Assembly: GCF_988242995.1 (NCBI RefSeq)
Contig: NZ_OZ547043.1
DNA: 64,000 nucleotides
Direction: 5' to 3' (one strand)
In this document: positions 24,492-64,000 of the stretch, piece after piece
How positions within the stretch are numbered: position 1 is the stretch's first letter
Layout: the number at the start of each line of letters is the position of its first letter
The notes under the pieces: model-generated
Told to the model about the DNA's origin: nothing
The model's database searches: none
The model's input: the letters and a program-made list of their open reading frames with translations, nothing else
Program-made: the position numbers and the translations under genes

Positions 24492-25892
24492 TCAGGTATG
24501 TTTAAAGCTGTTCTGCTGGGCAATACCCTGCAGTTTCGGGTGATCGCTGAGATATTTCAGGGAGGCTTTGTAGTCTTCCAGCAACAGTTCAGCAAAGTCC
24601 ATTTCGAAGCCGCGACGACACATAATGCGCATCACCACGATGTCGGTGGCTTCACCGCCGAGAGTGAAGGCCGGAACCTGCCAGCCGCGCAGACGCAGAC
24701 GTTCAGAGAGGTCGTAGAGGGTGTATCCCGGGTCTTCACCATCTTTCAGTTTGAAGCAAACCGCCGGGATGCCTTCGTCCGGGCGACCGGTACAGATGAA
24801 CTCATACGGCCCCAGTTTGGCGATTTCATCCGCCAGATAAGCGGCAACCTGGTAAGAGGCGTTCTGTACTTTGGTATAGCCTTCACGACCGAGGCGCAGG
24901 AATTCATAGTACTGTGCAATTACCTGACCCGCCGGGCGGGAGAAGTTGATGGCGAAAGTACCAATCTGACCACCGAGATAGTCAACGTTGAACACCAGTT
25001 CCTGCGGCAGCGCTTCTTCATCACGCCAGATAACCCAGCCGCAGCCCAGCGGAGCCAGACCGAATTTATGGCCTGAAGCACTGATCGATTTCACACGCGG
25101 CAGGCGGAAGTCCCAGACGATATCCGGGGCGACGAACGGTGCCAGGAAGCCACCGCTGGCGGCGTCGATGTGCATGTCGATGTCGATACCGGTGTCGGCC
25201 TGGAATTTATCCAGCGCATCGTGCAGCGGTTGCGGGAACTCATAGTTACCGGTGTAGGTCACGCCGAAAGTCGGCACCACGCCGATGGTGTTTTCGTCGC
25301 AGGCTTCAATCATGCGTTTCGGGTCCATAAACAACTGACCGGGGCGCATAGGGATCTCACGCAGCTCCACATCCCAGTAGCGGGCGAATTTATGCCAGCA
25401 GATTTGCACCGGACCGCACACCAGGTTTGGTTTATCCGTTGGTTTGCCTGCAGCTTCCATACGCTTGCGCCAACGCCATTTCATCGCCATCCCGCCGAGC
25501 ATACAGGCCTCGGAAGAACCAATGGTGTTGGTGCCAACGGCCTGACCATTTTTCGGCGCAGGCGCATGCCACAGATCGGCAACCATGTTTACGCAACGCA
25601 GGTCGATTGCTGCAGATTGCGGATATTCTTCTTTGTCGATCCAGTTTTTGTTAATGGATAAATCCATCAACTTATGGACATTTTCGTCGTCCCAGGTCTG
25701 GCAGAAAGTGGCCAGGTTCTGACGAGCGTTGCCATCAAGATATAATTCGTCATTGATAATCTGGAATGCGACATCATCGCGCATTTCGTGCAGCGGAAAT
25801 CGTTTTGATTCTGCGATAGTGGAAATAGACTTCGCACCAAAACGTGAATCGAGTAGTTCCGACCTTAAATCCGTTACTTGCTTCTTATCCAT
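24492..25892 (-). CDS. gadB: Glutamate decarboxylase beta (PLP-dependent)
   Basis: Track ORF 24492-25961 with start at [21 protein letters not shown] (466 aa); PLP-lysine motif [10 protein letters not shown]; adjacent gadC marks it as gadB rather than gadA. Confidence 0.92.
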
Positions 25893-25972
25893 TTTAAACT
25901 CCTTAAAATGATTGGATCGCATTAAAAAAGTAGGATTTATCGATAAAGTAAGCAAGTGCAAAGGACTCTGGT

Positions 25973-25992
25973 TTAAATAACAAAATCCTAAT
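25973..25992 (-). promoter_or_regulatory. GAD box (GadE-binding site) in the gadB promoter
   Basis: Minus-strand sequence TTAGGATTTTGTTATTTAAA, about 80 nt upstream of the gadB ATG, matches the 20-bp GAD box as recalled. Confidence 0.7.
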
Positions 25993-26253
25993 GTTATTTA
26001 TCGTGAAATATTACGAGAATAATGTTTTTTCATTAAAAAACAATACAATAGAGAATTGCTTGGTGGTAGTAAGGTGTTTTATGTTGTTATTTTTATGCGC
26101 TTTCTATGTCTCCTGAATTATCGCGTAAAAATCAGACATTAAAATATCATTATTAGCACTCGACTATTATTTTGAACGCATTTATAAAATTATTACATAA
26201 AAATGTCGAATATTGCTAAAATCCCCGCCAACGAGGTGTTGACGGGGCTGTTA

Positions 26254-31503: not shown

Positions 31504-33189
31504 TTATAAAACCGCGCTAATGTCACAAATATCATCGGCCAGGTTCCAGACACCGGGTTGATGTGTAACCATAATGACGCCGCTTGTGGGTAGTTTTTCA
31601 CGCACTAAACGCAGTAAGCGGATAGCCTCTTGTTCCTCAAGATGAGAGGTAGTTTCGTCAAGAAATATCCATTTCGGACGTCGTAAAATTAATCGTGCCA
31701 GGGCGATACGTTGTTTTTCGCCGCTGGAAAGAATATCTCCCCAGCGATCGTGGTCATGAATACGCGCAGCCAATTTCCCCAGACCAACCTGATGCAGTAT
31801 TTCGCTCAACGATTTATCGTCTACGGGCAGGGGAAGTGCTTTACAAATAATCTCTTTCAGTAAGCCGGTTTTGATTAACGGTGTTTGTGACACATACCAA
31901 CTGTCAGCAGGAGAAGAAATATCACCTTTGAACCACGGCCAGCAGTGGGATAATGTTTTAAGCAGTGTGGTTTTTCCCGCACCAGAGTAACCTTTCAGTA
32001 ATAGCCATTTGCCTGGCGAAACATGAAAGTTCAGGTTCTCTAATATGATCTTATTATCAGGAGTACGAATACTCGCGTCAGCCACTTGTACCGCATGTTG
32101 GCAATTTTTAGGCTTATTCGTAGGGCGCTGTTCGGTGAGTTGATGGAACTCATACAAACGATCGATAACCGCAGCCAGTTCAGCAAGTTCGTCATATTTA
32201 TAAATAAACCAGCTTAAATTGTTCGATACCAGCATAAATGCCTGGCGCGATTTCATCAGTCCGCCCAGATTGATCTGTCCGCTAATAAACTGTGGCAATA
32301 ACAGAAAGTAGGGAAGAACGCTAAGCGAGCGCGAATAAATATTCTGCCAGTAATCAAGCCAGCGCTGACGATTCATTAAACGATGCCAGTTCTCTTTAAT
32401 GGTATGAAAATTGTCGCTCAACTCCTGGCGTTGTAGAGACTCAGCATTGCTTAGCGCAATCAGTTCAGCCTGCTTATTATGCTGCACAAGATTAGTTCGA
32501 AATGTCGCTTCGCTACGTTGTTTTTCCACATTAAGCGGACGAATACGTTTACCCACCTTATGAGTAAATAAAGTTCCACCGATCACAATGAGCACGACGG
32601 TATAGACCATATACCCCTGGATATTCCATTCTGTTCCACCAACAGTGAATGAGAGCGTACCCGCGCTTTGCCAAAGAATAACGGTAAAGGTGATCAGCAT
32701 GCTAAGCGACTGGATGAAGCCAAATGAAAGGCTGAGCGTTTTACTGATCAGCAAGAGAATGTCCTCAGCGATACGTTGGTCAGGGTTATCTGTATTTTTA
32801 TGCTCGCCGTAGATTTGCGTGAAGTAGTAGTTTTTATCTGCAAACCAGCGATTAAGGTAGTAATCTGTTAACCATTCGCGCCAGCGAATAGTCAGTAGTT
32901 TAATTAACCATGTTTTGTTTACGGATATTAATACAAAGATCCCCAGCAGGGCAGGGAACCAAAGAACAAGCTGCCAAAGCTTATCGGTTTCTTTCTGGCT
33001 TAGCGCATTGAAAAAATCATTATTCCAGTCGTTTAACCAGACCTGAATTTTAACAACGCCAAGGATCATGGCGAGGATAATAATGATTAACAGCACTGAA
33101 GTTTTATTATTCTTACGCAGCCAAAAGGGCTTCAGCAGACAGAGATACTTTGCTATCAACATACAAAACGTAATGGGAATGGTTATCAT
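31504..33189 (-). CDS. yddA: ABC transporter, fused permease/ATPase
   Basis: 561 aa; N-terminal TM domain, C-terminal Walker A GYSGAGKTT and signature SSGEKQR. Confidence 0.88.
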   Translation of the reverse strand: MITIPITFCMLIAKYLCLLKPFWLRKNNKTSVLLIIIILAMILGVVKIQVWLNDWNNDFFNALSQKETDKLWQLVLWFPALLGIFVLISVNKTWLIKLLTIRWREWLTDYYLNRWFADKNYYFTQIYGEHKNTDNPDQRIAEDILLLISKTLSLSFGFIQSLSMLITFTVILWQSAGTLSFTVGGTEWNIQGYMVYTVVLIVIGGTLFTHKVGKRIRPLNVEKQRSEATFRTNLVQHNKQAELIALSNAESLQRQELSDNFHTIKENWHRLMNRQRWLDYWQNIYSRSLSVLPYFLLLPQFISGQINLGGLMKSRQAFMLVSNNLSWFIYKYDELAELAAVIDRLYEFHQLTEQRPTNKPKNCQHAVQVADASIRTPDNKIILENLNFHVSPGKWLLLKGYSGAGKTTLLKTLSHCWPWFKGDISSPADSWYVSQTPLIKTGLLKEIICKALPLPVDDKSLSEILHQVGLGKLAARIHDHDRWGDILSSGEKQRIALARLILRRPKWIFLDETTSHLEEQEAIRLLRLVREKLPTSGVIMVTHQPGVWNLADDICDISAVL

Positions 33190-33213
33190 TAGCGAAAATT
33201 GATTGTGCCATCC

Positions 33214-33237
33214 AATGATTATCTATGGCAATGATTT
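33214..33237 (-). promoter_or_regulatory. Putative Fur box upstream of yddA
   Basis: Plus-strand sequence aatgattatctatggcaatgattt; the minus strand contains GATAATCATT, matching the Fur consensus core, about 30-50 nt upstream of the yddA start. Confidence 0.45.
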
Positions 33238-33479
33238 ACTGATGAAATTTATTTAAGTATCATTTAACAATATGAAATATAAAGGAATATTTCATTTTCA
33301 GTGGTTATGGTTATGCTATTGATAATCAAGGATATTGCTAATGCCCTGACGCATACCACGTAAGCCAGGATTTTCGCAAGGGAAGATGATGATGACGAAA
33401 CACCCGACAGGAATATGTGTCAGGTGCATTGTTAAGGTCATAAGAAGGAGGCTAAGACTGGAGCTAAGAGGGAGCGTTA

Positions 33480-34688: not shown

Positions 34689-36371
34689 TTATTTCGCTTC
34701 GCTTAGTGCTTTCTTGATATTGTTAAACTTCTCCTGATTTACCTCGCTAAGCGGTGGCTGGCTGCTGTCGATAAACTCTCTTACCACGCCTTGCATCTCT
34801 TTAACGACCTGCGGATTGGCGGCGGCAAGGTTATCTTTTTGCTGTAGATCCGTCAGTTTGTAGAGACCTAACTGATTGTTTTCTACTGTATAGACAAGCG
34901 AATAATCGTTATTTCTCACCGTATAAGAGAATTGGCTTAAGTCCTCAGTGTTGGGGTTATGCGGGTAATCGTCTGACTGATGGCGAACAAATTTGTGGTA
35001 ATTATCCCAGAATGGAATATTTTCCTCGTCAAACCAGTGAGAATAAGAGGTTATCCAGGTCAGATTTTTATGTGGCTCGCCTTGTTTCTTATCTTGCAAC
35101 CAGGGCAGCAAGGAAACGCCATCCAGCTTAAGGTCTTTTGGAATGCTGATATCGGCTGCATCAAGAGCTGTCGGGTAGAAATCCATTGCGGAAATCAGCT
35201 TGTCATAATTACCGGGTTGAAGTTTTCCTTTCCACCACATAAACATTGGGGTGTGAGTACCGCCAGGATAGGTCTGACTCTTATAGCCTTTTTGCGCCCC
35301 GTTCAGCGGCAGAGGACCATCGATAACCGCACCATTATCGGAGGTAAAGAGAATAATTGTATTGTCATACTGTCCGTTTTTCTTCAGTTGTTCGAGAATG
35401 CGTTTTACACCCTGATCAACAGAATAAACGGAAGCGTAGTAGTTATCTGCTGTTTGACTACCGGTATTAAATTGCTTCTGATATTGCTCCGGTGCAGGAT
35501 TATCATTTGGCAGGTGCGGAGCATTATAAGCCAGGTAAAGCATAAAAGGCTGGTCAAGTGTTTTGGCACGATCAACAACGCCAATTGCCTCATCGGTTAA
35601 CTGATCGCTGATATAACCTTTTGCGGGGACGCGTTCACGGTTTTTGAACAGTGAAGGGGAGTTGTAATATGCCGTTCCTGCAGCGTGGAATCCCATAAAG
35701 TAATCAAAGCCACGGTTTTGAGGTTGCCATTCTTCCGCAGAAAATGTGGTGAAGTTGTCATGATAGTCACGCGTTTGTTTATCTTCCGGTACCGGCACAT
35801 TACTGATTTTTGACAAGTGCCATTTACCTACTGCTGCAGTGTAATAACCATGATTCTGGAATAATTCAGGCAAGAAAGTTTCTGTTAGCGGAATACCATC
35901 CTGAGCATCGGTATTGGAATAGACACCAAAGCGGGCGGGCGCTCGACCGGTCATTATTGCGGCGCGGGAGGGGCCGGAAACACCGTGCGCCACATAGCCG
36001 TTAGTAAAACGTACGCCTTCATCCATTAATGAAAGGAGCGTCGGCGTTGATTTTTGCGCAGCTTCAATGGCTTTATCTATCCCTATTTTGTAGGTATCGA
36101 CAACTTCACGATTTTCCATTGTTTTTGGGTCAAAAGATCCCTTATCAAAAGGAAGTTGTCCATAACCAAGATCATCCATGGTCAGTACGATAATATTTGG
36201 CTTTCCTTTGGTACTGTATTCAGTCGGCGTAAAGTCTGAGAAAGCAACGTTTGTTTTGGTTGCTTTCAGCTTTACATCATCTGCCGCATGAGCAGCAAAT
36301 GCAGCCATACCAGATGCCAGTATCAAAGATATCGAGGTACTTACGACACTTTTCTTTAATGCAGACTTCAT
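34689..36371 (-). CDS. ydeN: Periplasmic sulfatase (type I sulfatase family)
   Basis: Track ORF 34689-36551 with start at MKSALKKSVVSTSISLILASGMAAFAAHA (signal peptide), 560 aa; sulfatase active-site region and DDLGYGQ metal-binding region. Confidence 0.85.
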   Translation of the reverse strand: MKSALKKSVVSTSISLILASGMAAFAAHAADDVKLKATKTNVAFSDFTPTEYSTKGKPNIIVLTMDDLGYGQLPFDKGSFDPKTMENREVVDTYKIGIDKAIEAAQKSTPTLLSLMDEGVRFTNGYVAHGVSGPSRAAIMTGRAPARFGVYSNTDAQDGIPLTETFLPELFQNHGYYTAAVGKWHLSKISNVPVPEDKQTRDYHDNFTTFSAEEWQPQNRGFDYFMGFHAAGTAYYNSPSLFKNRERVPAKGYISDQLTDEAIGVVDRAKTLDQPFMLYLAYNAPHLPNDNPAPEQYQKQFNTGSQTADNYYASVYSVDQGVKRILEQLKKNGQYDNTIILFTSDNGAVIDGPLPLNGAQKGYKSQTYPGGTHTPMFMWWKGKLQPGNYDKLISAMDFYPTALDAADISIPKDLKLDGVSLLPWLQDKKQGEPHKNLTWITSYSHWFDEENIPFWDNYHKFVRHQSDDYPHNPNTEDLSQFSYTVRNNDYSLVYTVENNQLGLYKLTDLQQKDNLAAANPQVVKEMQGVVREFIDSSQPPLSEVNQEKFNNIKKALSEAK

Positions 36372-36772
36372 AAATGTTCCTCTTCTTATTGTACTTAATT
36401 CCAAAGTAATTTTACGAAGAGAAATAAGTGGATGTAAGTGAAGTGAGTCACATAAAGAGATAGCAGATTTAGCTAAAAAAAGGGAAATAACAGTCCATAA
36501 AGCGTTGACATTACTTTCTGTTCTACTAAGTAATTTCTCGCCGATAAACAACTAATCTATTGATATTTAATAAATTATTGCATTTTAATGACAAAATGCC
36601 GAATTGAGATCATAAATAATCATGCAACAGGTTATGCAAATGCATAAATATGTGATGAATGTCACTTATTTATTTCAAGAAATATATCGCCTAAAAACAA
36701 CGCGGGGCAGGAAATGGCTGCCCCATTTAATTCTTACGTAGCGTGTGTGGTTGACTACTCGTTAGCAAATAA

Positions 36773-37534
36773 TCAAATAGCTAAAGCACTCATCGTGTTG
36801 TCCGTGTTCATACCGGTGTGCCTTTGACAACGGTACTCCTTCGAAACTCTCTTCGGACTGTTGCCGAAATGTTTGCGGAACGCATAAATAAAATATGATG
36901 TACTCGCATAACCACATTGTTCGGCAATTTTATTGACTGAACCTTCTACGCGTATCAAATTTTTTGCGTGCTGCATTCTGGCATCTAAAAGAATCTGTGA
37001 GAATGTCGTTTGCTCTTGCTTTAGTTTTTTCTTCAACAGGCTTTCACTGATGTACAGGCAGTCACAAATATCTTTCAGCTTCCATGGGTGCGCCAGCTTC
37101 ATGTTGACAATATTTCTCACTTTCCCGGAAACGGATAGCACACCGTTAGTTAATAGTGTAATGAAACCTTTGCATGCGGCAAAAATAGACAGGCAAGAAA
37201 AAAGCAAAAGTTCTGAAAAGTTATGATGATTGCGTTCTTCCGAGTTGAGATAAGCAATCATTTCATTAAGCAATCCCGTCGGTACATTTGAAGCACGTAA
37301 AAACTTCGCAGGAACAGGCACCGTCACTGTCTGGATGTTAGTGCATTGTAGATATTTTTTAATGGTGTTTTCATTAAATCCGATTTCTTTGAAATGCCGC
37401 TCATAAGGTTCAAAATGCGTACGAACAGCGTTATCTACCATCAGGATCTCGCCGTCAGAGAAGGCGTAATCTTTATCTAAAATGTTAGCGTTGAAGGCAT
37501 GATGAATAAATATAACAGAACAAACGAGCGACAT
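36773..37534 (-). CDS. ydeO: AraC-family transcriptional activator of acid resistance
   Basis: 253 aa with C-terminal AraC HTH; downstream of safA in the same orientation. Confidence 0.88.
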   Translation of the reverse strand: MSLVCSVIFIHHAFNANILDKDYAFSDGEILMVDNAVRTHFEPYERHFKEIGFNENTIKKYLQCTNIQTVTVPVPAKFLRASNVPTGLLNEMIAYLNSEERNHHNFSELLLFSCLSIFAACKGFITLLTNGVLSVSGKVRNIVNMKLAHPWKLKDICDCLYISESLLKKKLKQEQTTFSQILLDARMQHAKNLIRVEGSVNKIAEQCGYASTSYFIYAFRKHFGNSPKRVSKEYRCQRHTGMNTDNTMSALAI

Positions 37535-37602
37535 TTTATCTCCTTAAAACAATAAAGTTTTTATCGATACTTTTTTAACATTTCACATTTATAATTTGCT
37601 GT

Positions 37603-37806
37603 TTATTTCCAGTCTTGCAAACTATTGATAATGAAATGTGTAAGATCTCTTGCCATGCGACCCATTTCTGAAATGCCCTGCTGATCAATTGCCGAAAAAA
37701 TGGCTATCAACGTAAGTGTCAGCAACAAGACAACCACAATTACAGACATGATTTCTTTATAGTTGTCTCTTTGCATGATTTTGTTTTTCACTGTGGTCGC
37801 ATGCAT
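37603..37806 (-). CDS. safA: Small membrane protein connecting the EvgS/EvgA and PhoQ/PhoP systems
   Basis: About 65 aa with a single TM segment (IVVVLLLTLTLIAIFSAI); immediately upstream of ydeO. Confidence 0.8.
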   Translation of the reverse strand: MHATTVKNKIMQRDNYKEIMSVIVVVLLLTLTLIAIFSAIDQQGISEMGRMARDLTHFIINSLQDWK

Positions 37807-37917
37807 TTCAAATGTGTTTATTTAGCGGATAACGTTAAAAATCGTTAATCAGTATGATTAATATAACAGGCTGGATAAAAGAGGAAATAGGACTGGCACT
37901 TCAGTACTGAGCGGAGT

Positions 37918-37935
37918 TTCTTACAACTGTAGGCA
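37918..37935 (-). promoter_or_regulatory. EvgA-box-like inverted repeat upstream of safA
   Basis: TTCTTACAACTGTAGGCA resembles the EvgA consensus TTCYTACA-N2-TGTARGAA; about 110 nt upstream of the safA ATG. Confidence 0.55.
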
Positions 37936-38053
37936 GAGGTTTATATCTTATAGTGTGTATTTTAATTTAATCCATGTGAGCAAATTGCGCGATAATAGTC
38001 AATGAGGAATTCTTCTGCTGTGCGGATGACAGCAGAAGAAATGAGGAGGCGAA

Positions 38054-40333
38054 TTAATTTGATGGCTCTAATTCAACAGGAATACTTTTATAGCCAGGAA
38101 TGCCACTTAATGGATCGTGGTTATCAAGTGTTAGCATGTGATTCGATTCTGGAAAATAGGTCACCAGTGAGCGGTCAGCCATAGGGTAAATGACCACTTT
38201 TAATCTATCCATGCGGCGTGAGCTTCGCTTACCGTCTGGCGTAAGCGCAATAAGATTAACTCTTTCGCCGTTTTTTACACGGCAAATTTTAGCTTGTTTA
38301 GCACTCATAAAGACCACATCTCGTTGACCGAATACCCCTCGATAGCGATCATCCATACCATAAATCGTCGTGTTGTACTGATCGTGACTGCGTACTGTCG
38401 CCATGACTAGCTTACTGTTAAACGCTGAAGAGGGATCTTCTAACAGCCCTTTACTGGTAATGAAATTAGCCTTACCTGACGGCGTCATCCAGCGCCTTTC
38501 AGCAGCTGCGTTTATCAGGTGAAAACCTCCAGTATGTCGGATGCGCTGGTTATAGTCGGCGAACTCTGGCAGCACAGCTTCAATGTCATTGCGAATGCGA
38601 TCATAATCTTCCACCAGATACTCCCAGGCTACCACGCTCTGGGGTAGTGCCGCCTGCGCGATACCCGCGACCACTGCACACTCTGATTTCAGCATTACAC
38701 CGGCGGGTTTTAACACGCCACGCGAGGCATGAATCATCGACATTGAATCCTCAACGGTTACCGCCTGCGCACCGCTTTTTTGCATGTCAATCTCGCTACG
38801 TCCCAGAACCGGCAGAATATAGCTATGCCGTGCGGTCAGCAGATGAGAGCGGTTAAGCTTAGTGGCTACGTGTACCGTCAGATCTAATTGTGTTAACGGT
38901 ACAGCGCTCGCTTCCCGATCTGGCATTGCCAGTGCAAAGTTGCCCCCCATGCAGATCAATGCTCGAGCCTGCCCCGTACATATTGCTTGCATGCTGGCAA
39001 TTGCAGCATGTCCAGGTGCATGAGGTGGGGTGAAACCATAGCGCTCACCCAGGCGAGCCAGAAACTCTGCAGACGGTTTCTCGGTGATACCGACGGTTCG
39101 GTCGCCCTGTACATTAGAGTGACCTCGTAGTGGGCAGATACCCGCACCAGGCTTGCCAATGTTACCTTTCATCAACAGCAGATTGACCAGTTGCTGTACA
39201 TTCTGGGTACCATGTTCGTGCTGAGTGATCCCCATTCCGTAACAGATAATGGTGCGTTCGGCAGCGGCATATGCATCAGCCAGTTCGGCGATTTGAGTCT
39301 GACTTAGTCCAGAAATACGTTCGATATCTTTCCACTCGGAATTGAGCACGTCACGGCGTAGCTCGTCAAAGCCGACGGTATGCGTTTGAATAAATTCGTC
39401 ATCCAGCAATGAGGGCCGACCTGCGGCGCTTGCAGCATCATCGCGCTCAATTAACAGGCGCATCATCCCCTTGAGCAATGCCATATCGCCACCAATGCGC
39501 ACGTTATAGTAGGCACTGGCCAACTGAGTCTCAGAGTTCGTCAGCATTTCAAACGGGTTTTGCGGTGCGGTAAATCGCTCCAGGCCACGTTCCTGTAGAG
39601 GGTTGATAGCGATCATTTTCGCTCCCCGTTTCACTAAAGCGCGCAACGAAGTCAGCATGCGAGGGTGGTTTGTACCAGGGTTATGCCCAATGCAAATGAC
39701 TAAATCGCATTTCTCAAAGTCTTCCAGCAACACGGTCCCTTTACCCACACCGATACTCGCTGCCAATCCCACACTGGTCGGTTCATGGCACATGTTGGAG
39801 CAGTCGGGAAAGTTATTGCTCCCGTATTCACGGGCAAAAAGCTGATAAAGAAAGGCAGCTTCATTGGAAGTGCGCCCCGAAGTATAGAATTCAACCTGAT
39901 TGGGATCACTATAGCTTTGAAGGCGAGCGCCAATTTCGTCGAAAGCTTGTTGCCAGCTTAATGGCTTGTAACAGTCGCTGACGTCATCATATTTCAAAGG
40001 CTGAGTGAGACGTCCCGCAGCCTCAAGCTCGTGATCTCCCCAGGTAAGTAATGATTGAACCGTATTCTCAGCAAAGAAAGAGGCATTTACCTGCTTATCC
40101 GTGACTTCCCAGGCGATTGCTTTTGCGCCGTTTTCACAAATGTCGAATGACGCACTGTGCTTAGGATCTGGCCATGCACATCCCGGACAGTCAAAGCCCT
40201 CTGGCTTATTCATGTCAAACATGGCAATAACATCCTGGCGTATATCCATCTGCTTACGTACTGCATTCGCTACGGATTTAACAGCACCCCAACCACCGGC
40301 AGCTCCCTGGTAGGATTCAATTTTTTTCTTCAT
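38054..40333 (-). CDS. ydeP: Molybdopterin-dependent oxidoreductase (formate dehydrogenase-like, acid resistance)
   Basis: 759 aa; N-terminal Cys cluster (CPGCAWPDP), molybdopterin oxidoreductase fold. Confidence 0.88.
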
Positions 40334-40581
40334 CTGCTTATCCTGTGTGGAAATGAATTATTAGGATTTGTAATAGCGATGATGCAAAGTATATACAAAG
40401 GGTTTATCGTCAACATGAATATATAAGAGTAGGGGACTACTCTCTTACTATTTTTACTCTATTATCGTTAAATAATAGAGTAGTATAAATACGATAAGTT
40501 AAGCATCATCTCTCATAGGGTTTAAATTAACATAATTCTCAATATAAAAAATAAGACTCTGGCTTCAATTGTGCGCGGATT

Positions 40582-40599
40582 TTCTTACAAGTGTAGGAT
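40582..40599 (-). promoter_or_regulatory. EvgA-box-like inverted repeat upstream of ydeP
   Basis: TTCTTACAAGTGTAGGAT matches the EvgA box pattern; about 250 nt upstream of the ydeP ATG. Confidence 0.55.
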
Positions 40600-40671
40600 A
40601 ATAGCCTTCACAAAATAATTATCCGCGCAATTTTCATGAATGGAGCGCATAGACTAATGTCAAAATCACAA

Positions 40672-41586
40672 TTATTCATAGATAAAAGTGACACCAATGA
40701 CTGACTGGACGGCTCCGGCTGCAACCTTGTTTCCTGTTTGTCCATAGGTTGCGCTTAAACCCAGAGGTACTTTGCTTTTATTTACTGTCCCCAGGGAGAC
40801 ATTTTCTCCTGTTGCCAGTGTTTTTCCATTACGCATCAGAGAGACACCCACGCCCGATGCTTTTGTTGCATCTGGTGCTGTGTTAGCAAACACTTGTCGG
40901 GCACTGTCAGTGGTGGCACCCGAAAGATAAAATGAGAGCTTTTGTTCGCTAGAGCAATATACACCAAGGGGTATTTCTGCGCTTCCAGGAAAGTCCGGGA
41001 GATTCACGGTGACATTACGACTATCAACGGTGCAACCGCCTGTTGGCATAACAACACTGTTATTTGAAATAATATTCCACGTAAAATTACGCGGATTTCC
41101 GCTTCCTAACGTGGCAATTTTATACATATGAATACGGGCAATAACTTCCCCTGCTTTTATGACAACTCCACCAGCCGCTCCGACTGGGGTAATATAGAGT
41201 TTTAACGGTAATGGCATCGGTGTCTTATCACCAATATCCAATACGTTGGTATTTGTCGTCAACGGGAAAGGGTAGGTCACATTATTCCAGTACAGTGATC
41301 CTTTATATGACTGTAGGGAGCCTGCGAAAGCTGATCCTTGTACCAGGTTTATATGATCAGTGTCGTACCAGCCGCCGTAATCATTCCAGCAACTTATATG
41401 CTGAGACAAGTCTACAACCAGATTCTGGCCCGGTTGTATTACAGGATCGAGATTAACATAAACAGAGGTTGTACCTGCTCCAATACTTGACCCGCCATCG
41501 ACATTACAACTGAAGGCAAAAACTTTGCCTGCCATTAATAGAAGATAAATACCGAACAGGACCTTTATACTGAATGTTTTACCCAT
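40672..41586 (-). CDS. ydeQ: Fimbrial tip adhesin, FimH-like two-domain
   Basis: 304 aa with signal peptide; last gene of the chaperone-usher operon; C-terminal pilin domain motif. Confidence 0.8.
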
Positions 41587-46471: not shown

Positions 46472-47035
46472 TTATAGATATTGAACTTTGAAGGTCGCAT
46501 CAGCGTTTGCAGTACCAGCTACTGACTGCCCGAGAGCAATATAACGAGCCTGGAACGGCAGTATATTCGTGCCATCAATCAAGTCAGTTTTAGCGCTAAA
46601 AGTGGCACCATCAAGTATTAATACCTCACCCGTACGGTCCAAAATTTGAATACCGACATTTTGGGCAGAGCCTGCCGCTGAACTCTGCAGCGCTAACGTA
46701 TCGTCATTACTGGTGACAGTAGTACCCAGGAATGCAACAGCTGCATTACTGGAAACATTGGTATCACAATCATTCAGCTTGATATTGAAGCCAACGGCGG
46801 AGCTGAGGTCACCCGCTTTAGCCAGACGAGAAGAACGGACCTGACCCAGCTCAACCGTTTGGTTCATTGATTCTGAATCAATCGCACAAGCGGCATTTAC
46901 CACTTCACCTTTAAAATGAATAACACCGCCATTAACAGTGGTCGTTACTGATTCATCACCCTCGGCTGCGCTTACCGCAGCAGACGACATCGCCAACACA
47001 GAAACGACAATCATACCGACATGTTTGAGTTTCAT
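46472..47035 (-). CDS. Major fimbrial subunit (type 1 / F9-like pilin)
   Basis: Track ORF 46472-47083 with internal start [23 protein letters not shown]; Cys pair and C-terminal ...TFKVQYL typical of FimA-like pilins. Confidence 0.8.
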
Positions 47036-47468
47036 AATTCTCCAGAATTTATATTTAAGTAGCTGAATAAAGAAAGTTAACAATTAAGTCATTCTGTTAT
47101 TGCTTATAAAACAAGAATCATTCTTGATGGGATATTGCCCTGAGAATATAGTTTCCAGGGTTATTACATTTCACGAAGAACGATAATATCTTTAAATTAC
47201 AAGGACACCTAATCACAACAAGTTTATTGCAGCACTTGTTGTAGAGGGTATTTGCAAAGACATTTTATGTCGCTAAATAACATTACGATTTCATTATGCA
47301 TGTTATTTATAAACAGCGACTAAACAGAATATTATTGCGAACAAGGGAAGTGTCAGGAAAGGTCAAGAGCGGCCAATGGTTTATATGGCTATAAAACATT
47401 AGCTATGGTTAATGTTTGACTGGTGTAACTAACACGGAATTGCTCTAAACAGATAAGTGCAGGGTTTA

Positions 47469-47723
47469 TTAAAGCTGACCGACAGACTTTCTTAACCCGG
47501 TAATATCTCTCTTAGGTGACTCTCCAAACATCCGCGAATATTCCCGACTGAAATGGGATAAGCTTTCGTAACCGACAGCATAGGCTGCAGTGGTGACATC
47601 GTAATGTTCATTCAGCATCAGTCGCCTGGCTTCATTGAGGCGTAGCCATTTCTGATACCGGAGTGGACTCATTCCCGCAAGCTGTCTGAAGTGTTGATGG
47701 AAAGTGGGGGTGTTCATTTGCAC
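47469..47723 (-). pseudogene. yneL: Remnant of an AraC-family regulator (C-terminal HTH only)
   Basis: 84-aa ORF is only the AraC C-terminal HTH domain (LRYQKWLRLNEARRLM...GYESLSHFSREYSRMFGESP); no N-terminal domain ORF upstream. Confidence 0.65.
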
Positions 47724-57586: not shown

Positions 57587-60500
57587 TTACCAGCTATATT
57601 TCACACCCAGCATGCCCTGAGTATCGCTATAGCCTTTATCACCTAGTTGCACACCGACATTCCCCCACAGGCTAAGGTTGTTATTTACTTTCGCCTCAAC
57701 CCCGGTACGTACTTCACCGAGATTACGCGCACCATCACGGCTTACGGTTTGACCATTCATCTTCACGGCGTAGACTTTGCTGTTGTTGATCCAGTTCGCT
57801 TCAATGTAAGGCTGGAACTCACGCTGTTTACCATTGTCACGCTGGTGATGACTGTTCAGGTAGGTTTTCACCCCAAGTCGCGTTTGCACGTTTCCGTCGC
57901 CTTCCGTTTCAATGCGTGTTCCGTCTTTCCGGGTATGGTCAGAATCTTTCACACCCATCCAGGTGATTTGTACCTGTGGCTGGACGTACCAGGTATTCAG
58001 CGTCCCTTCGCTGCCGCTAAAAGTTCCCGCTTCAAAGGTATACCCACCCTCAACAGAGGCCGTCACACCGCGAGAATCATAGTCGTCAGCAGAACGGTTA
58101 TCGGAACTGACGCTGTTATCAAACCAGTTATACAGCGCCCAGCTGTCAACATAAGCGCCGGTCTTATTCGCATCGTTCTGATACCAGGTCGCGTACAGTC
58201 CTGCGCTGTAACCGCTGATGCGCCCATCCGATTTATAACCCACACGATTACTCTGAGTATTACTGTGCTGATTGGCGTAGCCTGCCATCACGCCAAGATG
58301 CCAGCGATCCTGCGCGTTGCTACTCCACTGCGCCAAATCGCCTCCTAGCTGCAATACATAGCGGTTAGCCTGAGTATTTAGCTGCCCGTCACCGGTCCTG
58401 AAACGTTCGTGCCCCCCGACATGACGCATCCACATACTGCTTGCCGAACCCTGAGAATGCAGTGAATCTGTATACTGCGGCTCACCCAGACGGTCGTGTA
58501 AGCGATGGCTAAACAGCGAGTTGGCTGCGGCAATGTTGCTGATATAGCTTCCGGCCTCCGGGCGATAAACTGATGGGCCTTCCGGATCCACAACAGGGGG
58601 ATTATTGATGGGATCGGGTGTATCCGCTGGCGTTACGCCGTCCCATTTACTGGTCAGATACCAGTTTTTCTCGTCATTCCCCTTCCCTTTAGCCAGCGTG
58701 TAGACGTAAGCCCCAGCTTCGACAGTTCCGGTGGTCAGCGCGAAGTTACCTGCAGAATTACCGCCAACCTCAATGAGTTCAATACCGTTGACCGTTTGTG
58801 CACCGACGCCGCCAATGTTATCAACCCGAACGCGAGTGTTCCCTTGGGTATCGCCTTTCACGTTCATTTTATCCGTGGGTGAATTATCGCCGCCCAGCGT
58901 CGCGTTGAACGTCATCAGGCCATTGTTTCCGGTATAGTTGCCGTTAACGGTCAGTACATTCCCCGGTTTTCCTCCTTCACTATTCATTTGAACCGTGCCG
59001 CCATTCTCCAGGTTACCGCCGACAGTGGTTTTAGCGACACGCAGTGTCCCCCCTGGCATAACGTTCACATCACCTGCAGTAGTGACATTTCCCGACATCA
59101 CACCGCTGTTATGGATATTAATGTGCTGACTTGCCATATTAATGGCAGAGTCGGAACCGAAAGCAATTTCACCACCCACGATATCCGTCGTACCCTGATA
59201 CGCCGCGGAATCTTTGTTAAGAGTCAGGATCCCGGTCCCCAGTTTTGTCACATCACCGCTACCGCTGATACTGTGCGTCATCGCCCAGCTACGCTCAGTG
59301 GAGATGGTGAGCAGGCCATTATTGATAACGGAAGCATCACCCAGGTTTTTCTGCTCGTTGACGCTGAGCGCGCTGCCTGTATCAATGTTGAATTGCCCCA
59401 CAAAGCGGCTATTATCGCCATCCAGCTCTACGTCTGTCCTGGCGGTTGCGCTCACGATACCCTTCCCGCTTATGCTATTACGCAGTTCGCCGGTCACATT
59501 TTTTAGCGTTAACAGACCGTCATTGGCAATATTTCCTCTACCTAACCCCTGCGTATTATCGAGGCTGACTTCCGCATTTGGGCTAATGCTGGTTAACGCA
59601 TTGTAGCGTGCATTAAGCCCCTCGATAGCCAGCGTTCCCCCTGTAACATTCAGGTTTCCGCCACCTGTCAGTTCGCCCTGACTGATCCCACCTTTATTCA
59701 CCGTCAGCGACCCCTCTTTAAACAAAACAGTCGAACCCATCAGCCCGGTGAATGTCTCTACCGTCTGGGCCGATCCATTAAGATCGACGATGGCCGCGTT
59801 GCTGATGTTCAGTTCCCGAGTATTGCCCAGCGCGCCATCCGCATCGGTACGTAATGTCCCCATCTGAACGTAGGTTGCCCCCTGATAGTCGTTCTGACCG
59901 TTGGAAAGCGAAACCTGTCGCACCGTATTGATTGCCAGATCCCCTTCACCACCGATTTTTGCCGACATATCGGCCGTTGCGCCATAGGCTCCGCCATGTT
60001 CGGCTAACGTCAGCTTTTGCCCACCATGGATGTTCAGCGCTTTCAGCCCATAGTTAACGTACAAACCATCACCTGGTGCGGTCGTGAGGCGGAATCCATA
60101 ATCACCCTCGGCGACCACTGTCCCGTTTTGTGCAATATGTAACGTTTTGTCCGCTTCCACCTCGTCGCCCTGTAAATCACGTAACGTTAATGAGCCACCC
60201 GACCCAATAACCGTTTGCGCCTTCACCAGTTGAACGCCGACATGACTATCATCGTGTTCCAGCAAATTGAGCGTCGTCAGAGGGTTATTCGCCATGGGAT
60301 CATTCCACGGTTTAGGCACGTCGATAAGCACGTCGCCCGTCCCGTTTACCTGATAGTTACGGCCTTTCCAGGTGTAGTCACCCGCGCCGACAACCAGCGT
60401 ATCGACGCTGATATATCCCTCCGCGAGCGTCGCAGCAGGAATATCCGTATCGAAAATGAGCGTACCGCCATTCATGGCCAGTCCACCAATGGATTGCTCT

Positions 60501-63007
60501 CCCACGTTTACCGATGTGGTATTTTCACTGTCAGACTGCAACATCGCGTGAGTAAGCGCAGCGGTGTTGTCGCGTTCCAGCGTGAAGGTACTATCTTTCA
60601 GTTGGGCAACACCGGCGAATTCAGTCCCTGTTGCATGGGTAAAGCCAAACATCTTGTCGGAGGATGACAGCTGCACTCGCATCAAGCCATCGCCTTTGAG
60701 CGCATTGGTCAGCGTGTAATCTCCTGCACTGTTCGTTGATGCGAGAATGTCGAGCGTACCGGGGTTTGCAATGGTTACTTCACTCGAACCCATGCCCGTT
60801 ACCCCATCTGCCGTATGAGACGCAATGGTCAGGAGGCCGTCATTGACCAGCGTTTTACCGCTATAAGTATTCCCTGCATTGAACACCGTATGGCCTGCAT
60901 CATGGATCACTTTTCCGTCTTTATCGTCACCTGTAATCAGCATATCGACCTGGTAGCCGGCATCACTGTTATTAGTATGATTAAAGACAAAAACACCTTC
61001 GCCAGAGCCAAACTCTATTTTCGTCGCGTTGGTGATAAATCCGGCATCTGCCGCCGCCTCACCGTGAGCTGCACCAATGTTTAGCGTTCCTACAGCAGGT
61101 TCAAAAACACCTAAGTAAACTTCTCCACCTTCGACATTCAGCGTACCGTTATTCGTCAGTGTTAACGTACCTGTGCCAGTCGTCCCTACATTCATATTGA
61201 ATGTTTCAAGAAGAGAGTTCTGCCCATCCACCCGCACGTCGCCCTTACTTTTGTCATTGAGAGCTATCTGTGTATCACGCGCTTTAACTATACCTCCGGT
61301 GGTAATATTCAGTTCACCCGCGCCTAATACACCGACCTGTAGCAATTGGGCGTTAGTAGATGACGTTTTTAAATTCCAGAGACTATCCGTTGAAATATTA
61401 ACTATCCCCTTACCGGAGGCATTTCCTCCGATAAATCCATAGCCCGTTGAATTAAGAGTGGCACCATTACTGACATTTACGATGCCGCTACCAAAATTAC
61501 CGACATTAATACCTACAGTATCGAACAATGATGTCGCATCCATCAGGTTCAGTGTGCCGATACCGCTTGCTTTATCGCCCAAAAAAGTAATATTTTGCGA
61601 TACAAACTTACCGCCATCGCTAATATTGAGGTTTCCGACACCCGCAACACCAATGGTGGTATAGACATTCTTATTGACCTCCCACATCCCCCCCGTGGTG
61701 ATGCTGACATTCCCGACGCCGGTTTCTCCATAACCGAGTGAGCTTCCTCCGTTGCTGACAACAAGCCCCTCATTACTGATATTCATTTCGCCGTGGCCGT
61801 CATAACCAAGATTAGTTCCGAGATTAGTGATAACGGAGTTCTTATCCTTAATAGTAATGTTGCCTGTGCCTGTTTCTTTCATCCCCGCAGTGATAATTCC
61901 CGAATCTACTTTTCCTTCACTCGAGACATTAAGTTCACCGTCGCCAGCATCACCGATATAGATATAGCGGAAAGCTTCGCCCGTTCCGAGGAAATTCCAA
62001 TGCCCTTTATCAGTCACGTTGACGACACCGTGGGAACCGTCCTGAACGCCCACCAATGAATATTCTTTGTTATTAATCAGTCCATTATTGGAAATATTGA
62101 CTTTGCCATTACCGAAATATCCATTATAGAGTCTGCGTACCGTGATGACAGAGTCTTGATCCTGCACATTCAGGGTTCCGATACCGGTGGCATTGCCACC
62201 GATAATCGTATTTTCAGCCGTAATCAGCCCACCCTCGCGAATAGTCGCTTCCCCAGTTCCTTGATTGCCAATTTGAAATTCAATTGAGGAATCATTATTT
62301 TTTATTAGCCACTCGCCACCCTTTTCAACGACAACCTTACCATTACTGTTCGCCTGATATCCTACAATGGCGACGATTGAACTCGTGACGTAACCCTTAT
62401 CCGTAATATTTAATGAGCCTGTACCGTAACTCCCTATTTCGAATAATTCGGTCATCAGAACCGAGTCCTCTCCCTCAACATTGACCGTCCCGACGCCTCC
62501 TGTCGAAGAACCTATCCTTAAATATCCTCCGTCAACGTGCCCCTTCTGTTTAATATTCAGCATCCCCGTTCCGGATTGGCCCACATTTAAAGGCCTTGCA
62601 TTATTTCCGCTATCATACAATCGCCAGGTGCCACCCAAAACATTAACGGTGCCCTTCGAGTTCTCATTACCACCAATGACGCTGGTAGTAATAGTGGTTA
62701 AGGAGGCATTACCGCCAGCCAAAATATTAAGCACTCCAGTGCCATACCACCCAACCAGGTAGGCATCATAAGCAATATCAGTATTAATATTGGTAATCTG
62801 ATCATTATCAACTTCCAGACTCGCACCAGACGCTGAACCGCTTAGTGCCAGCAAAACACCCAGCGACAATCTACTGAATTTCGTTGTCAGTCCAGAGGAT
62901 TTACGCAAATTAACCGTCGATGTTTTACCTACTCTGCGAGTTAATTCCGAGCAGACCTGAAATACCTGTAGGGTGCAATTCCATATCACGCGATAGATTC
63001 TATTCAT
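57587..63007 (-). CDS. yneO: AIDA-I-type autotransporter adhesin, intact, 1806 aa
   Basis: Extended autotransporter signal region (MNRIYRVIWNCTLQVFQVCSELTRR...), long passenger with reiterated G-x-G / NxG beta-helix-like modules, and a C-terminal beta-barrel ending ...GVKYSW; position between hipB and lsrK matches K-12 yneO. Confidence 0.85.
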   Translation of the reverse strand: MNRIYRVIWNCTLQVFQVCSELTRRVGKTSTVNLRKSSGLTTKFSRLSLGVLLALSGSASGASLEVDNDQITNINTDIAYDAYLVGWYGTGVLNILAGGNASLTTITTSVIGGNENSKGTVNVLGGTWRLYDSGNNARPLNVGQSGTGMLNIKQKGHVDGGYLRIGSSTGGVGTVNVEGEDSVLMTELFEIGSYGTGSLNITDKGYVTSSIVAIVGYQANSNGKVVVEKGGEWLIKNNDSSIEFQIGNQGTGEATIREGGLITAENTIIGGNATGIGTLNVQDQDSVITVRRLYNGYFGNGKVNISNNGLINNKEYSLVGVQDGSHGVVNVTDKGHWNFLGTGEAFRYIYIGDAGDGELNVSSEGKVDSGIITAGMKETGTGNITIKDKNSVITNLGTNLGYDGHGEMNISNEGLVVSNGGSSLGYGETGVGNVSITTGGMWEVNKNVYTTIGVAGVGNLNISDGGKFVSQNITFLGDKASGIGTLNLMDATSLFDTVGINVGNFGSGIVNVSNGATLNSTGYGFIGGNASGKGIVNISTDSLWNLKTSSTNAQLLQVGVLGAGELNITTGGIVKARDTQIALNDKSKGDVRVDGQNSLLETFNMNVGTTGTGTLTLTNNGTLNVEGGEVYLGVFEPAVGTLNIGAAHGEAAADAGFITNATKIEFGSGEGVFVFNHTNNSDAGYQVDMLITGDDKDGKVIHDAGHTVFNAGNTYSGKTLVNDGLLTIASHTADGVTGMGSSEVTIANPGTLDILASTNSAGDYTLTNALKGDGLMRVQLSSSDKMFGFTHATGTEFAGVAQLKDSTFTLERDNTAALTHAMLQSDSENTTSVNVGEQSIGGLAMNGGTLIFDTDIPAATLAEGYISVDTLVVGAGDYTWKGRNYQVNGTGDVLIDVPKPWNDPMANNPLTTLNLLEHDDSHVGVQLVKAQTVIGSGGSLTLRDLQGDEVEADKTLHIAQNGTVVAEGDYGFRLTTAPGDGLYVNYGLKALNIHGGQKLTLAEHGGAYGATADMSAKIGGEGDLAINTVRQVSLSNGQNDYQGATYVQMGTLRTDADGALGNTRELNISNAAIVDLNGSAQTVETFTGLMGSTVLFKEGSLTVNKGGISQGELTGGGNLNVTGGTLAIEGLNARYNALTSISPNAEVSLDNTQGLGRGNIANDGLLTLKNVTGELRNSISGKGIVSATARTDVELDGDNSRFVGQFNIDTGSALSVNEQKNLGDASVINNGLLTISTERSWAMTHSISGSGDVTKLGTGILTLNKDSAAYQGTTDIVGGEIAFGSDSAINMASQHINIHNSGVMSGNVTTAGDVNVMPGGTLRVAKTTVGGNLENGGTVQMNSEGGKPGNVLTVNGNYTGNNGLMTFNATLGGDNSPTDKMNVKGDTQGNTRVRVDNIGGVGAQTVNGIELIEVGGNSAGNFALTTGTVEAGAYVYTLAKGKGNDEKNWYLTSKWDGVTPADTPDPINNPPVVDPEGPSVYRPEAGSYISNIAAANSLFSHRLHDRLGEPQYTDSLHSQGSASSMWMRHVGGHERFRTGDGQLNTQANRYVLQLGGDLAQWSSNAQDRWHLGVMAGYANQHSNTQSNRVGYKSDGRISGYSAGLYATWYQNDANKTGAYVDSWALYNWFDNSVSSDNRSADDYDSRGVTASVEGGYTFEAGTFSGSEGTLNTWYVQPQVQITWMGVKDSDHTRKDGTRIETEGDGNVQTRLGVKTYLNSHHQRDNGKQREFQPYIEANWINNSKVYAVKMNGQTVSRDGARNLGEVRTGVEAKVNNNLSLWGNVGVQLGDKGYSDTQGMLGVKYSW

Positions 63008-63530
63008 ATAAACGCTCCATATACAAACAATACAGCCACGAAAGAGATGAGTCGTCAGACATTAAAAATGAAACTTATTAAATTGTCAGAGGTCTGTATT
63101 GAGTGTTGGTTGGAGGTGGGAAGGTGTCAATTTGGCTAATTTGCTAATACTTTCGAATTGATAGATTAAAAATTGCATAGTTCTTATTTTATTTAAAAAT
63201 GAACCATGAGTTATTGTTGCTTAATAAGAAAAATGTTTCTTTTAATAAGAAAATTACCATCATCATATTTAACAAAGAATAGCATTAATTGCTAAAAAAG
63301 AACTCTATTAAAACTCTTTTTCATTCATTTATGCCTTTAGGAATATTCGCTATAAAATAAGGGTTATGCTTAATATTTTAAGAAAAATAGCAATTTCCCC
63401 TTGAATATATTACTGGCGATGGAACGATGAATCTGCAAGCTGGCATTTAACAAACCAGCTCTAAAAGAAGGGAAATAAGAATACTCAAAAACTAACAGCC
63501 ACGGTCATCATGATGTGGCTGTCAATGAAA

Positions 63531-64000
63531 CTATAACCCAGGCGCTTTCCATAACGACGTCGTCAGCCCGTGATCAACCAGCCCCAGCTGATCCTGATAA
63601 ACTGCCTGCCACTTATCGCGTGAATCCTGATAAAGTTCATGTTTTTCCGGGTCTGGTGTGTGCGTCCGTTCCCAGCGAACCAGGCGTTCTCCGGTTTCTG
63701 CCATTGATGAAAAAATTCCGGCACCGACGCCAGCTGCAATGGCACATCCTAATGCGGTGGCTTCTTTGACCACCGGAATATTGACAGGTAATCCCGAGAC
63801 ATCAGCGAGAATTTGACTCCATAATTTCCCTTTTGAACCTCCGCCTGCAAAGACTAACGATGAAGGATGAATATCCGAGAAATCAGCGATTTGCTGCAAG
63901 TTACACGCTGATACAATCGCCGCATTTTCTTCCAGCGCACGGAACAACGTCGCTTTGTTACATTTATCCGGATCAATAGACAAATTAATAAAGGAAGGCG
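63531..64000 (-). CDS. lsrK: Autoinducer-2 kinase (FGGY carbohydrate kinase), C-terminal part; gene runs off the window end
   Basis: Track ORF 63531-63983 contains FGGY-kinase C-terminal motifs ([20 protein letters not shown]...); the reading frame continues past position 64000. Confidence 0.85.

Follow-up and report, generated by a model that had tools for sequence, protein, structure and literature searches.

Among the closest relatives of the region described here are the promoters of UpaC, EhaG/UpaG, and YeeJ, autotransporter or adhesin promoters of E. coli that are repressed by H-NS and for which derepression in hns mutants has been shown experimentally. Other H-NS-silenced loci, bgl and flhDC, are known to be activated by insertion sequence (IS) elements, and E. 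coli adhesin genes are often phase-variable. Within the mar/sox/rob regulon, the known class I and class II promoters carry their marboxes, the sites of MarA, SoxS, and Rob, at about -40 to -75. A direct counterpart is the K-12 spacer between ydeK and lsrK (both on the minus strand), which is catalogued with a length of 345 bp as one of 78 K-12 'promoter islands' (Panyukov & Ozoline 2013, PMC3661553 Table 1). For this island the H column reads 'A', meaning that it was H-NS-bound in all of the ChIP studies compiled, namely those of Grainger, Kahramanoglou, and Oshima (PMC3661553). Listed as yneO<lsrK, the same spacer bears the 'HNS' mark, denoting that it contains an H-NS genomic-SELEX site, and it also contains an RpoD-holoenzyme genomic-SELEX site with the best-match promoter CTGACA-17-TTTAAT (Shimada et al. 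2014, PMC3946193), while an RpoS-holoenzyme SELEX peak was reported in the K-12 yneO/lsrK spacer (Shimada et al. 2017, PMC5493296). These published data on the orthologous K-12 sequence establish its occupancy by H-NS in vivo and in vitro and its in-vitro binding by both the RpoD and the RpoS holoenzyme.

We analyzed the corresponding spacer in a 64-kb stretch of E. coli DNA, hereafter the window. It spans 523 bp (63008-63530) between the ATG of an autotransporter gene (63005-63007) and the stop codon of lsrK (63531-63533), both on the minus strand, and the limits assigned to it in an earlier note on this DNA, from the autotransporter start to lsrK, proved to be exact. The lsrK gene, encoding the autoinducer-2 kinase, is represented by its 3' end (63531-64000, minus strand) and continues past the end of the window, as known from the annotations of K-12 and of E. 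coli strain 7/2, the latter being 100% identical over 741 bases around the spacer. The annotations of K-12 MG1655, strain 7/2, and ETEC H10407 agree on a single-strand arrangement of hipA-hipB, followed by the autotransporter gene and then lsrK-lsrR. Of the 5426 complete E. coli genomes, 4229 (78%) carry the spacer, nearly always as a single chromosomal copy. Functionally, it is the cis-regulatory DNA of an autotransporter gene of the YneO/ECSE_1600 family.

In the window, this gene (57587-63007, minus strand) is intact and encodes an AIDA-type autotransporter of 1806 aa, with an ESPR signal peptide, a repeat passenger, an AC_1 autochaperone, and a beta-barrel. The protein matched the NCBIfam model NF011422 ('ECSE_1600 family autotransporter') from end to end, with 4148 bits against a cutoff of 2335, and the Pfam domains ESPR, AC_1, Pertactin, and Autotransporter (the beta-barrel) were recovered. 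Its K-12 ortholog is the pseudogene yneO, earlier named ydeK/ydeU. Among 11 genomes, the gene was intact in six (7/2, Eco_23-3511, ECONIH5, RM9245, MSB1_7C, and KSC1031) and disrupted by frameshift or truncation in the other five (K-12, ETEC H10407, W4, GN03139, and O157 JEONG-1266), and the genome paper on strain SE11 reported it as intact in SE11 and HS and truncated in MG1655, E24377A, and Sakai (PMC2608844). Despite this frequent decay of the gene, the upstream spacer is ~97% conserved. The CpxR-regulon table of Bury-Moné et al. 2009 lists ydeK at 2.2-fold (PMC2731931). Truncated E. coli products made up the bulk of the matches in our protein search, in which new diversity came only from loci of two other types, represented by the enterobacterial contig L021 and by Pseudocitrobacter. 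E. coli-type yneO sequence was also present in a contig of a 'Candidatus Nanosynbacter' MAG (L012, 96%) and in an 832-bp 'Marinomonas sp.' contig (L014, 89%), both of which almost certainly reflect contamination or mis-binning of public assemblies.

The window spacer is 94.5% identical to the orthologous K-12 spacer and, by our own mapping, the equivalent of the K-12 ydeK/lsrK island (U00096.2 1596197, 345 bp) is an AT-rich core at 63095-63438, with an offset of +88 to +432 from the ATG. The likeness between the K-12 island and the window locus extends from orthology and AT-richness to promoter-like sites on both strands and to the binding of RNA polymerase and H-NS. The two differ in the gene downstream, which is a pseudogene in K-12 but encodes the full-length protein in the window's strain, and in a distal patch (63230-63345) that belongs to another haplotype in the window and includes a C-to-T change in a marbox. 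Neither this marbox nor a conserved promoter is mentioned in the paper on the K-12 islands (PMC3661553).

The comparison with H-NS ChIP data that the earlier note had proposed came out in its favor, the K-12 orthologous spacer being H-NS-bound in three independent ChIP studies and carrying the SELEX mark (PMC3661553, PMC3946193). Its reading of the spacer as an H-NS-type adhesin promoter appears right in substance, supported by the published data on the K-12 ortholog, and the heuristic by which it arrived there, from sequence alone, worked: the locus has the look of a textbook-style H-NS-occupied adhesin promoter. Such a status is already known and largely ordinary, having been catalogued in K-12. 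With UpaC, EhaG/UpaG, and YeeJ, yneO has in common H-NS occupancy and AT-rich DNA upstream of a type V adhesin gene that is cryptic or weakly expressed; it differs from them in that the evidence for yneO consists only of binding data, and in that the yneO coding sequence has a normal E. coli GC content. Our literature search returned no hns-mutant expression result for yneO, and we infer from occupancy that H-NS silences the autotransporter gene.

With respect to composition, the strong AT-richness that had been claimed was borne out, at 69.4% AT for the spacer against 52.1% for the whole window, and it reaches 77.2% in a core of 281 bp (63130-63410). A GC content this low is seen in just 0.09% of all 523-bp segments of the 64 kb, the global minimum of which is located in the spacer, and GC dips to 0.24-0.26 over 200-bp segments. 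The spacer is AT-rich over hundreds of bp, as expected of an H-NS-silenced region. The other descriptors proved to be less distinctive. The 'many A and T runs' of the earlier note correspond to 15 homopolymer runs of at least 4 nt, but mononucleotide shuffles of the same sequence gave 10.2 ± 2.7 such runs (P = 0.06). Likewise, when curvature was computed under the Bolshoy-Trifonov wedge model, with predicted peaks at 63133 and 63292, the spacer mean fell in the top 0.45% of 523-bp segments, but end-to-end compaction did not exceed that of composition-matched shuffles (P = 0.32).

Promoter-like sites followed the same pattern. In our own PWM scan (rather than PlatProm), 29 were detected in the spacer, that is, 55/kb against 17.8/kb in the window (top 0.8%), a density that was not above that of composition-matched shuffles. 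Promoter islands are delimited as at least 300 bp with dense predicted starts on both strands, and the spacer has this property, at a density equal to that expected from its composition. The H-NS nucleation motif, taken as the 10-mer TCGATAAATT, was not enriched in the spacer, where 2 matches were found against 1.65 expected. Since runs, curvature, promoter density, and the H-NS motif were all at the level set by composition, nothing except AT content marks this DNA as an H-NS site. The special property of the spacer is its AT content itself, and the other descriptors follow from it.

These counts, all equal to composition-matched expectation, are also what would be seen under a plainer explanation, in which the spacer is AT-rich through weak selection or mutation bias, is bound by H-NS incidentally, and holds no dedicated elements beyond a basic promoter. 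The pseudogenization of the gene in about half of the sampled strains, suggestive of relaxed selection, points in the same direction. We nevertheless regard this account as improbable, on the strength of elements that have been retained at fixed positions while the sequence around them diverged.

The elements were recognized by footprinting across three lineages in which the gene sits in three different contexts, namely E. coli, contig L021, and Pseudocitrobacter. In Pseudocitrobacter vendiensis (contig L013, with the same arrangement in L016 and L017), the N-terminal protein identity is 78% and the gene follows bluF-bluR-like genes, while in L021 (74% identity) the upstream neighbor is a divergent paoA-like gene. 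Upstream GC over the last 300 bp is 0.29-0.32 in the three lineages (0.31-0.32 in L021 and Pseudocitrobacter); the AT-richness travels with the gene, of which only this upstream spacer is compositionally unusual. Compared with K-12, the L021 spacer is 68% identical overall and that of Pseudocitrobacter 50%, and against this background three conserved islands stand out: a marbox, a promoter block, and the 5'UTR. Within the species, moreover, an alignment of nine E. coli alleles showed the gene-proximal ~190 bp (63008-63200) to be almost invariant.

The conserved promoter block (63090-63130, minus strand) holds a candidate sigma-70 promoter, TTGACA-17-AACACT, with its -35 at 63125-63130 and its -10 at 63102-63107, proposed from the PWM scan together with conservation in the three lineages. 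Its PWM score of 10.6 was the highest on the gene strand, and all three lineages keep the TTGACA hexamer, the 17-bp spacing, and the block around the -10 and the start, as TTGACA-17-RACACTCAAWACAGAC. The -10, AACACT, agrees with the consensus at just three of six positions. Closer to the gene, we located in the window the promoter that Shimada et al. 2014 had predicted (PMC3946193), CTGACA-17-TTTAAT (63061-63089, minus strand; -35 at 63084-63089, -10 at 63061-63066), which was conserved neither in L021 nor in Pseudocitrobacter and is E. coli-specific. The third conserved island is the 3' part of the 5'UTR (63008-63057, minus strand), in which a Shine-Dalgarno GGAG lies at 63015-63018; cross-lineage alignment placed the last ~50 nt at 88-93% identity to Pseudocitrobacter and L021, compared with 50-68% for the remaining spacer. 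A structured RNA in the 5'UTR was considered as a candidate but found no support, the fold being a weak AU/GU hairpin with zero compensatory pairs and no covariation.

At the opposite end of the spacer, the fold and the E. coli alignment revealed the intrinsic terminator of lsrK (63487-63522, minus strand), consisting of the stem ACAGCCAC/GUGGCUGU (63495-63502 paired with 63515-63522) followed by UUUUU at 63487-63491. It begins 9 nt after the stop codon and, with an 8-bp GC-rich stem and a 12-nt loop, has the makeup of a Rho-independent terminator; the fold of 63425-63540 on the minus strand reached -33.6 kcal/mol (z = -3.86), and the terminator is invariant in nine E. coli strains. The right-hand ~45 bp of the spacer (63487-63530) are hence lsrK terminator and not promoter DNA. 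A rule-based promoter and terminator scan of the spacer had given no match, under rules that exclude TTTAAT-type -10 hexamers and loops of more than 8 nt, and the terminator was missed by this consensus scan because of its 12-nt loop; our own PWM promoter scan and RNA fold were used in its place. Between this terminator and the AT-rich core lies a small inverted repeat, AGCTGG(C)...(G)CCAGCT (63438-63460), which lacks a following U-run and has no equivalent in L021 or Pseudocitrobacter.

The remaining conserved island is a marbox, that is, a MarA/SoxS/Rob site, ATAGCATTAATTGCTAAAAA (63279-63298, plus strand), the core of which, GCATTAATTGCTAAA, occupies 63282-63296. It is backward relative to the autotransporter gene, with its center 282 bp upstream of the ATG. 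Against the marbox consensus AYnGCACnnWnnRYYAAAYn (Martin et al. 1999), the window site agrees at 12 of 14 specified positions and the K-12 site at 13 of 14. The spacer has no other match to the core, and the 64 kb just one more. In ETEC H10407, a MarA ChIP-seq peak was reported at yneO (peak 1717096, site 1717112, sequence gcactaattgctaaa; Sharma et al. 2017, PMC5684230 Table 1), and in-vitro MarA binding at this site was rated +++, the strongest class (PMC5684230). By the ETEC annotation (ATG at 1716829), this marbox is 283 bp upstream of the ATG. The core in the window is identical to that of the grxA/ybjC marbox, likewise rated +++ (PMC5684230 table). Published data on orthologous sequence thus show that MarA binds the homologous ETEC marbox both in vivo and in vitro.

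The marbox is backward in all three lineages, and its position relative to the ATG is -282 in E. coli and -283 and -277 in L021 and Pseudocitrobacter, respectively, with 159, 160, and 159 bp from its center to the TTGACA -35. The E. coli and Pseudocitrobacter sites, GCAC-TAATT-GCTAAA and GCAC-AAAAA-GCTAAA, differ only at degenerate positions of the consensus. We put the chance of a marbox-core match anywhere in these spacers at 0.8-1.5%, and that of a match at the conserved position and orientation at ~2e-4. This cross-genus conservation of position and spacing is a new observation of our own and the only fresh angle on the locus, although it may be no more than a small lead: the footprint comprises three independent lineages only, and the conserved spacing could merely reflect an absence of indels.

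As a near-consensus site bound by MarA in vivo and in vitro, and one of the +++ sites of PMC5684230, the yneO marbox resembles those of class I and class II promoters of the mar/sox/rob regulon. Its geometry is different: from its center it is ~194 bp to the inferred start of the conserved promoter and 282 bp to the ATG, which places the site upstream of the class I/II range, and on neither strand was a conserved promoter found at class I/II distance from it. The locus also differs from the regulon in that MarA-dependent expression is not on record for yneO.

Taken together, these results bear directly on the plain-spacer account. It is made less likely by the conservation of the marbox, promoter, and 5'UTR blocks across three lineages in a diverged background, by the fixed marbox-promoter spacing of 159-160 bp, by published MarA binding in vivo and in vitro (PMC5684230), and by the near constancy of the proximal ~190 bp among nine E. 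coli strains. The spacer is structured beyond its AT-richness, with the lsrK terminator, the conserved promoter and 5'UTR, and the conserved marbox, all of which the earlier note had missed. We favor, as the probable explanation of the whole, a cis-regulatory spacer comprising the lsrK terminator, an H-NS-bound AT-rich core of ~340 bp, a marbox, promoters, and a 5'UTR, in which the gene would be silenced by H-NS and modulated by MarA.

Under this cis-regulatory explanation, H-NS would polymerize on the AT-rich DNA and cover the promoter, such that the adhesin gene would stay largely silent, as described for promoter islands in general. Other E. coli autotransporters are likewise kept poorly expressed by H-NS. 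The abundant promoter-like hexamers may be a by-product of AT-richness that H-NS would suppress as well. MarA, SoxS, or Rob, bound with the conserved promoter at a fixed distance of about 190 bp downstream, would modulate the silenced state, and would not work there as a classical class I/II activator. Because the marbox keeps its position within the H-NS-bound core, the most attractive reading of the site is that MarA/SoxS/Rob would modulate silencing. In its most specific form, which we offer as tentative and somewhat doubtful, the marbox would be a position-fixed distal element, 159-160 bp or ~15 helical turns from the -35, at which MarA/SoxS/Rob might remodel or counter-silence the H-NS filament and so make expression of the cryptic adhesin responsive to stress of the antibiotic, oxidative, or bile type. 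If so, MarA-family action at this marbox would represent a mode distinct from class I/II activation and a non-canonical addition to a well-studied regulon, and it would link expression of a surface adhesin to the multiple-antibiotic-resistance stress response. The modest value added here lies in linking the published promoter-island and H-NS ChIP records, RNA polymerase SELEX peaks, and MarA ChIP-seq site with the newly observed cross-genus conservation of the marbox.

A different role for the marbox would be to serve a divergent transcript on the plus strand, such as an sRNA or an RNA antisense to the 3' end of lsrK, or the spacer might hide a small gene. The marbox is indeed 'forward' for plus-strand transcription, and the plus strand has several promoter-like hexamer pairs, but none provides a class II -10 at the proper distance, and the lineages show no sequence conservation on the plus side of the marbox. 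In Pseudocitrobacter, moreover, the terminator and stop codon of a same-strand upstream gene lie directly beside the marbox, so that a plus-strand promoter there would fire antisense into that gene. A search of the spacer against Rfam at a permissive threshold yielded no family match for an sRNA, the one weak, sub-threshold match being within the coding sequence. As for a hidden gene, ORFs of 20-30 aa do occur in the spacer, but they span variable, indel-bearing sequence and none is conserved. A MarA-driven transcript on the plus strand is unlikely, and we consider this family of explanations, as a whole, to have very little chance of being correct.

A phase-variation switch, whether a fimS-like invertible promoter segment or Ag43-like control by Dam methylation and OxyR, is already largely refuted and hardly credible: the general frequency of phase variation among E. 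coli adhesin genes and an 18-nt imperfect inverted repeat (I2; 63175-63192 and 63352-63369, 83% complementary) with both the marbox and the most variable patch between its arms are outweighed, for a fimS-type switch, by the finding of the inverted arrangement in 0 of 4214 genomes, the lack of an adjacent recombinase gene in the K-12 and 7/2 annotations, and the poor conservation of the repeat arms in L021 and Pseudocitrobacter, and an Ag43-type switch is rejected by the presence of zero GATC sites in 63008-63530.

The adhesin gene had also been taken for horizontally acquired. This part of the claim fared less well, and we consider horizontal acquisition of the autotransporter gene doubtful. 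In its favor, the gene is accessory, being absent from B2 reference strains (CFT073, UTI89, and 536; PMC2608844); it occupies other contexts in Pseudocitrobacter and L021, which fits mobility; and it is pseudogenized in 5 of 11 genomes. Against it, the gene has a normal GC content (49.9%, with a GC3 of 0.515) and occupies a single, fixed locus across 78% of the complete E. coli genomes, and no mobility genes lie near that locus. In addition, only one of five foreign-DNA predictors flagged the K-12 ydeK/lsrK island (PMC3661553), and the SE11 authors read the absence from B2 strains as loss (PMC2608844).

Within E. coli, the patch at 63230-63345 exists as two haplotypes, one shared by the window, W4, and GN03139-like alleles and the other K-12-like, with many differences concentrated in ~115 bp and nearly identical flanks, a pattern that suggests allelic recombination inside the regulatory region. 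Further upstream, a distal block (63332-63395) is common to E. coli and L021 only (80% identity over K-12 -389 to -326) and contains GAATATTCCTAAA, which resembles an RcsAB box. With TAAGAATATTCCTA as the RcsAB-box consensus, three matches of at least 11/14 were present (63246, 63338, and 63476) against 0.2 in shuffles, and the one at 63338 (AGCGAATATTCCTA, minus strand, 11/14) lies inside the L021-conserved block. From these motif matches, possible Rcs control of the adhesin may be taken as a lead. We also searched metagenomes for further alleles: a first scan, for a non-E. coli promoter variant, gave zero matches, and in a second scan each of the 74 loci recovered carried an E. coli-type allele, with no new lineages among them.

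IS elements have entered the same part of the spacer in some strains. An IS5 copy in E. coli MSB1_7C (L010, 2011-2991) and an IS1 end in a metagenome contig (L069) fall in the same stretch, corresponding to ~63336-63345 of the window, just distal to the marbox and in or next to the GAATATTCCTAAA block. Their clustering could reflect a preference for AT-rich targets, or promoter activation as at bgl and flhDC. The presence of IS5 and IS1 in an AT-rich upstream region recalls those two loci, which their insertions activate; at yneO the insertions may simply mark AT-rich targets.

Five more low-GC clusters were present elsewhere in the window (25620-26519, 32776-33374, 36050-38097, 40178-40847, and 46888-47586), whose GC minima over 523 bp are 0.32-0.35, and these are likely to be further H-NS-type regions. 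The cluster near 25900 had the top promoter-like density of the window, and strong curvature peaks were located at 36126-37696.

Finally, two strains carry deletions next to or through the spacer. In strain 7/2 (L002, 8632-10717), past the point that corresponds to the end of the window, a deletion joins a 5'-truncated lsrK to lsrC, with lsrR, lsrA, and part of lsrC gone. A separate deletion in strain KSC1031 (L011) removed the spacer, lsrK, and lsrR altogether, such that the autotransporter start abuts a truncated lsrA.
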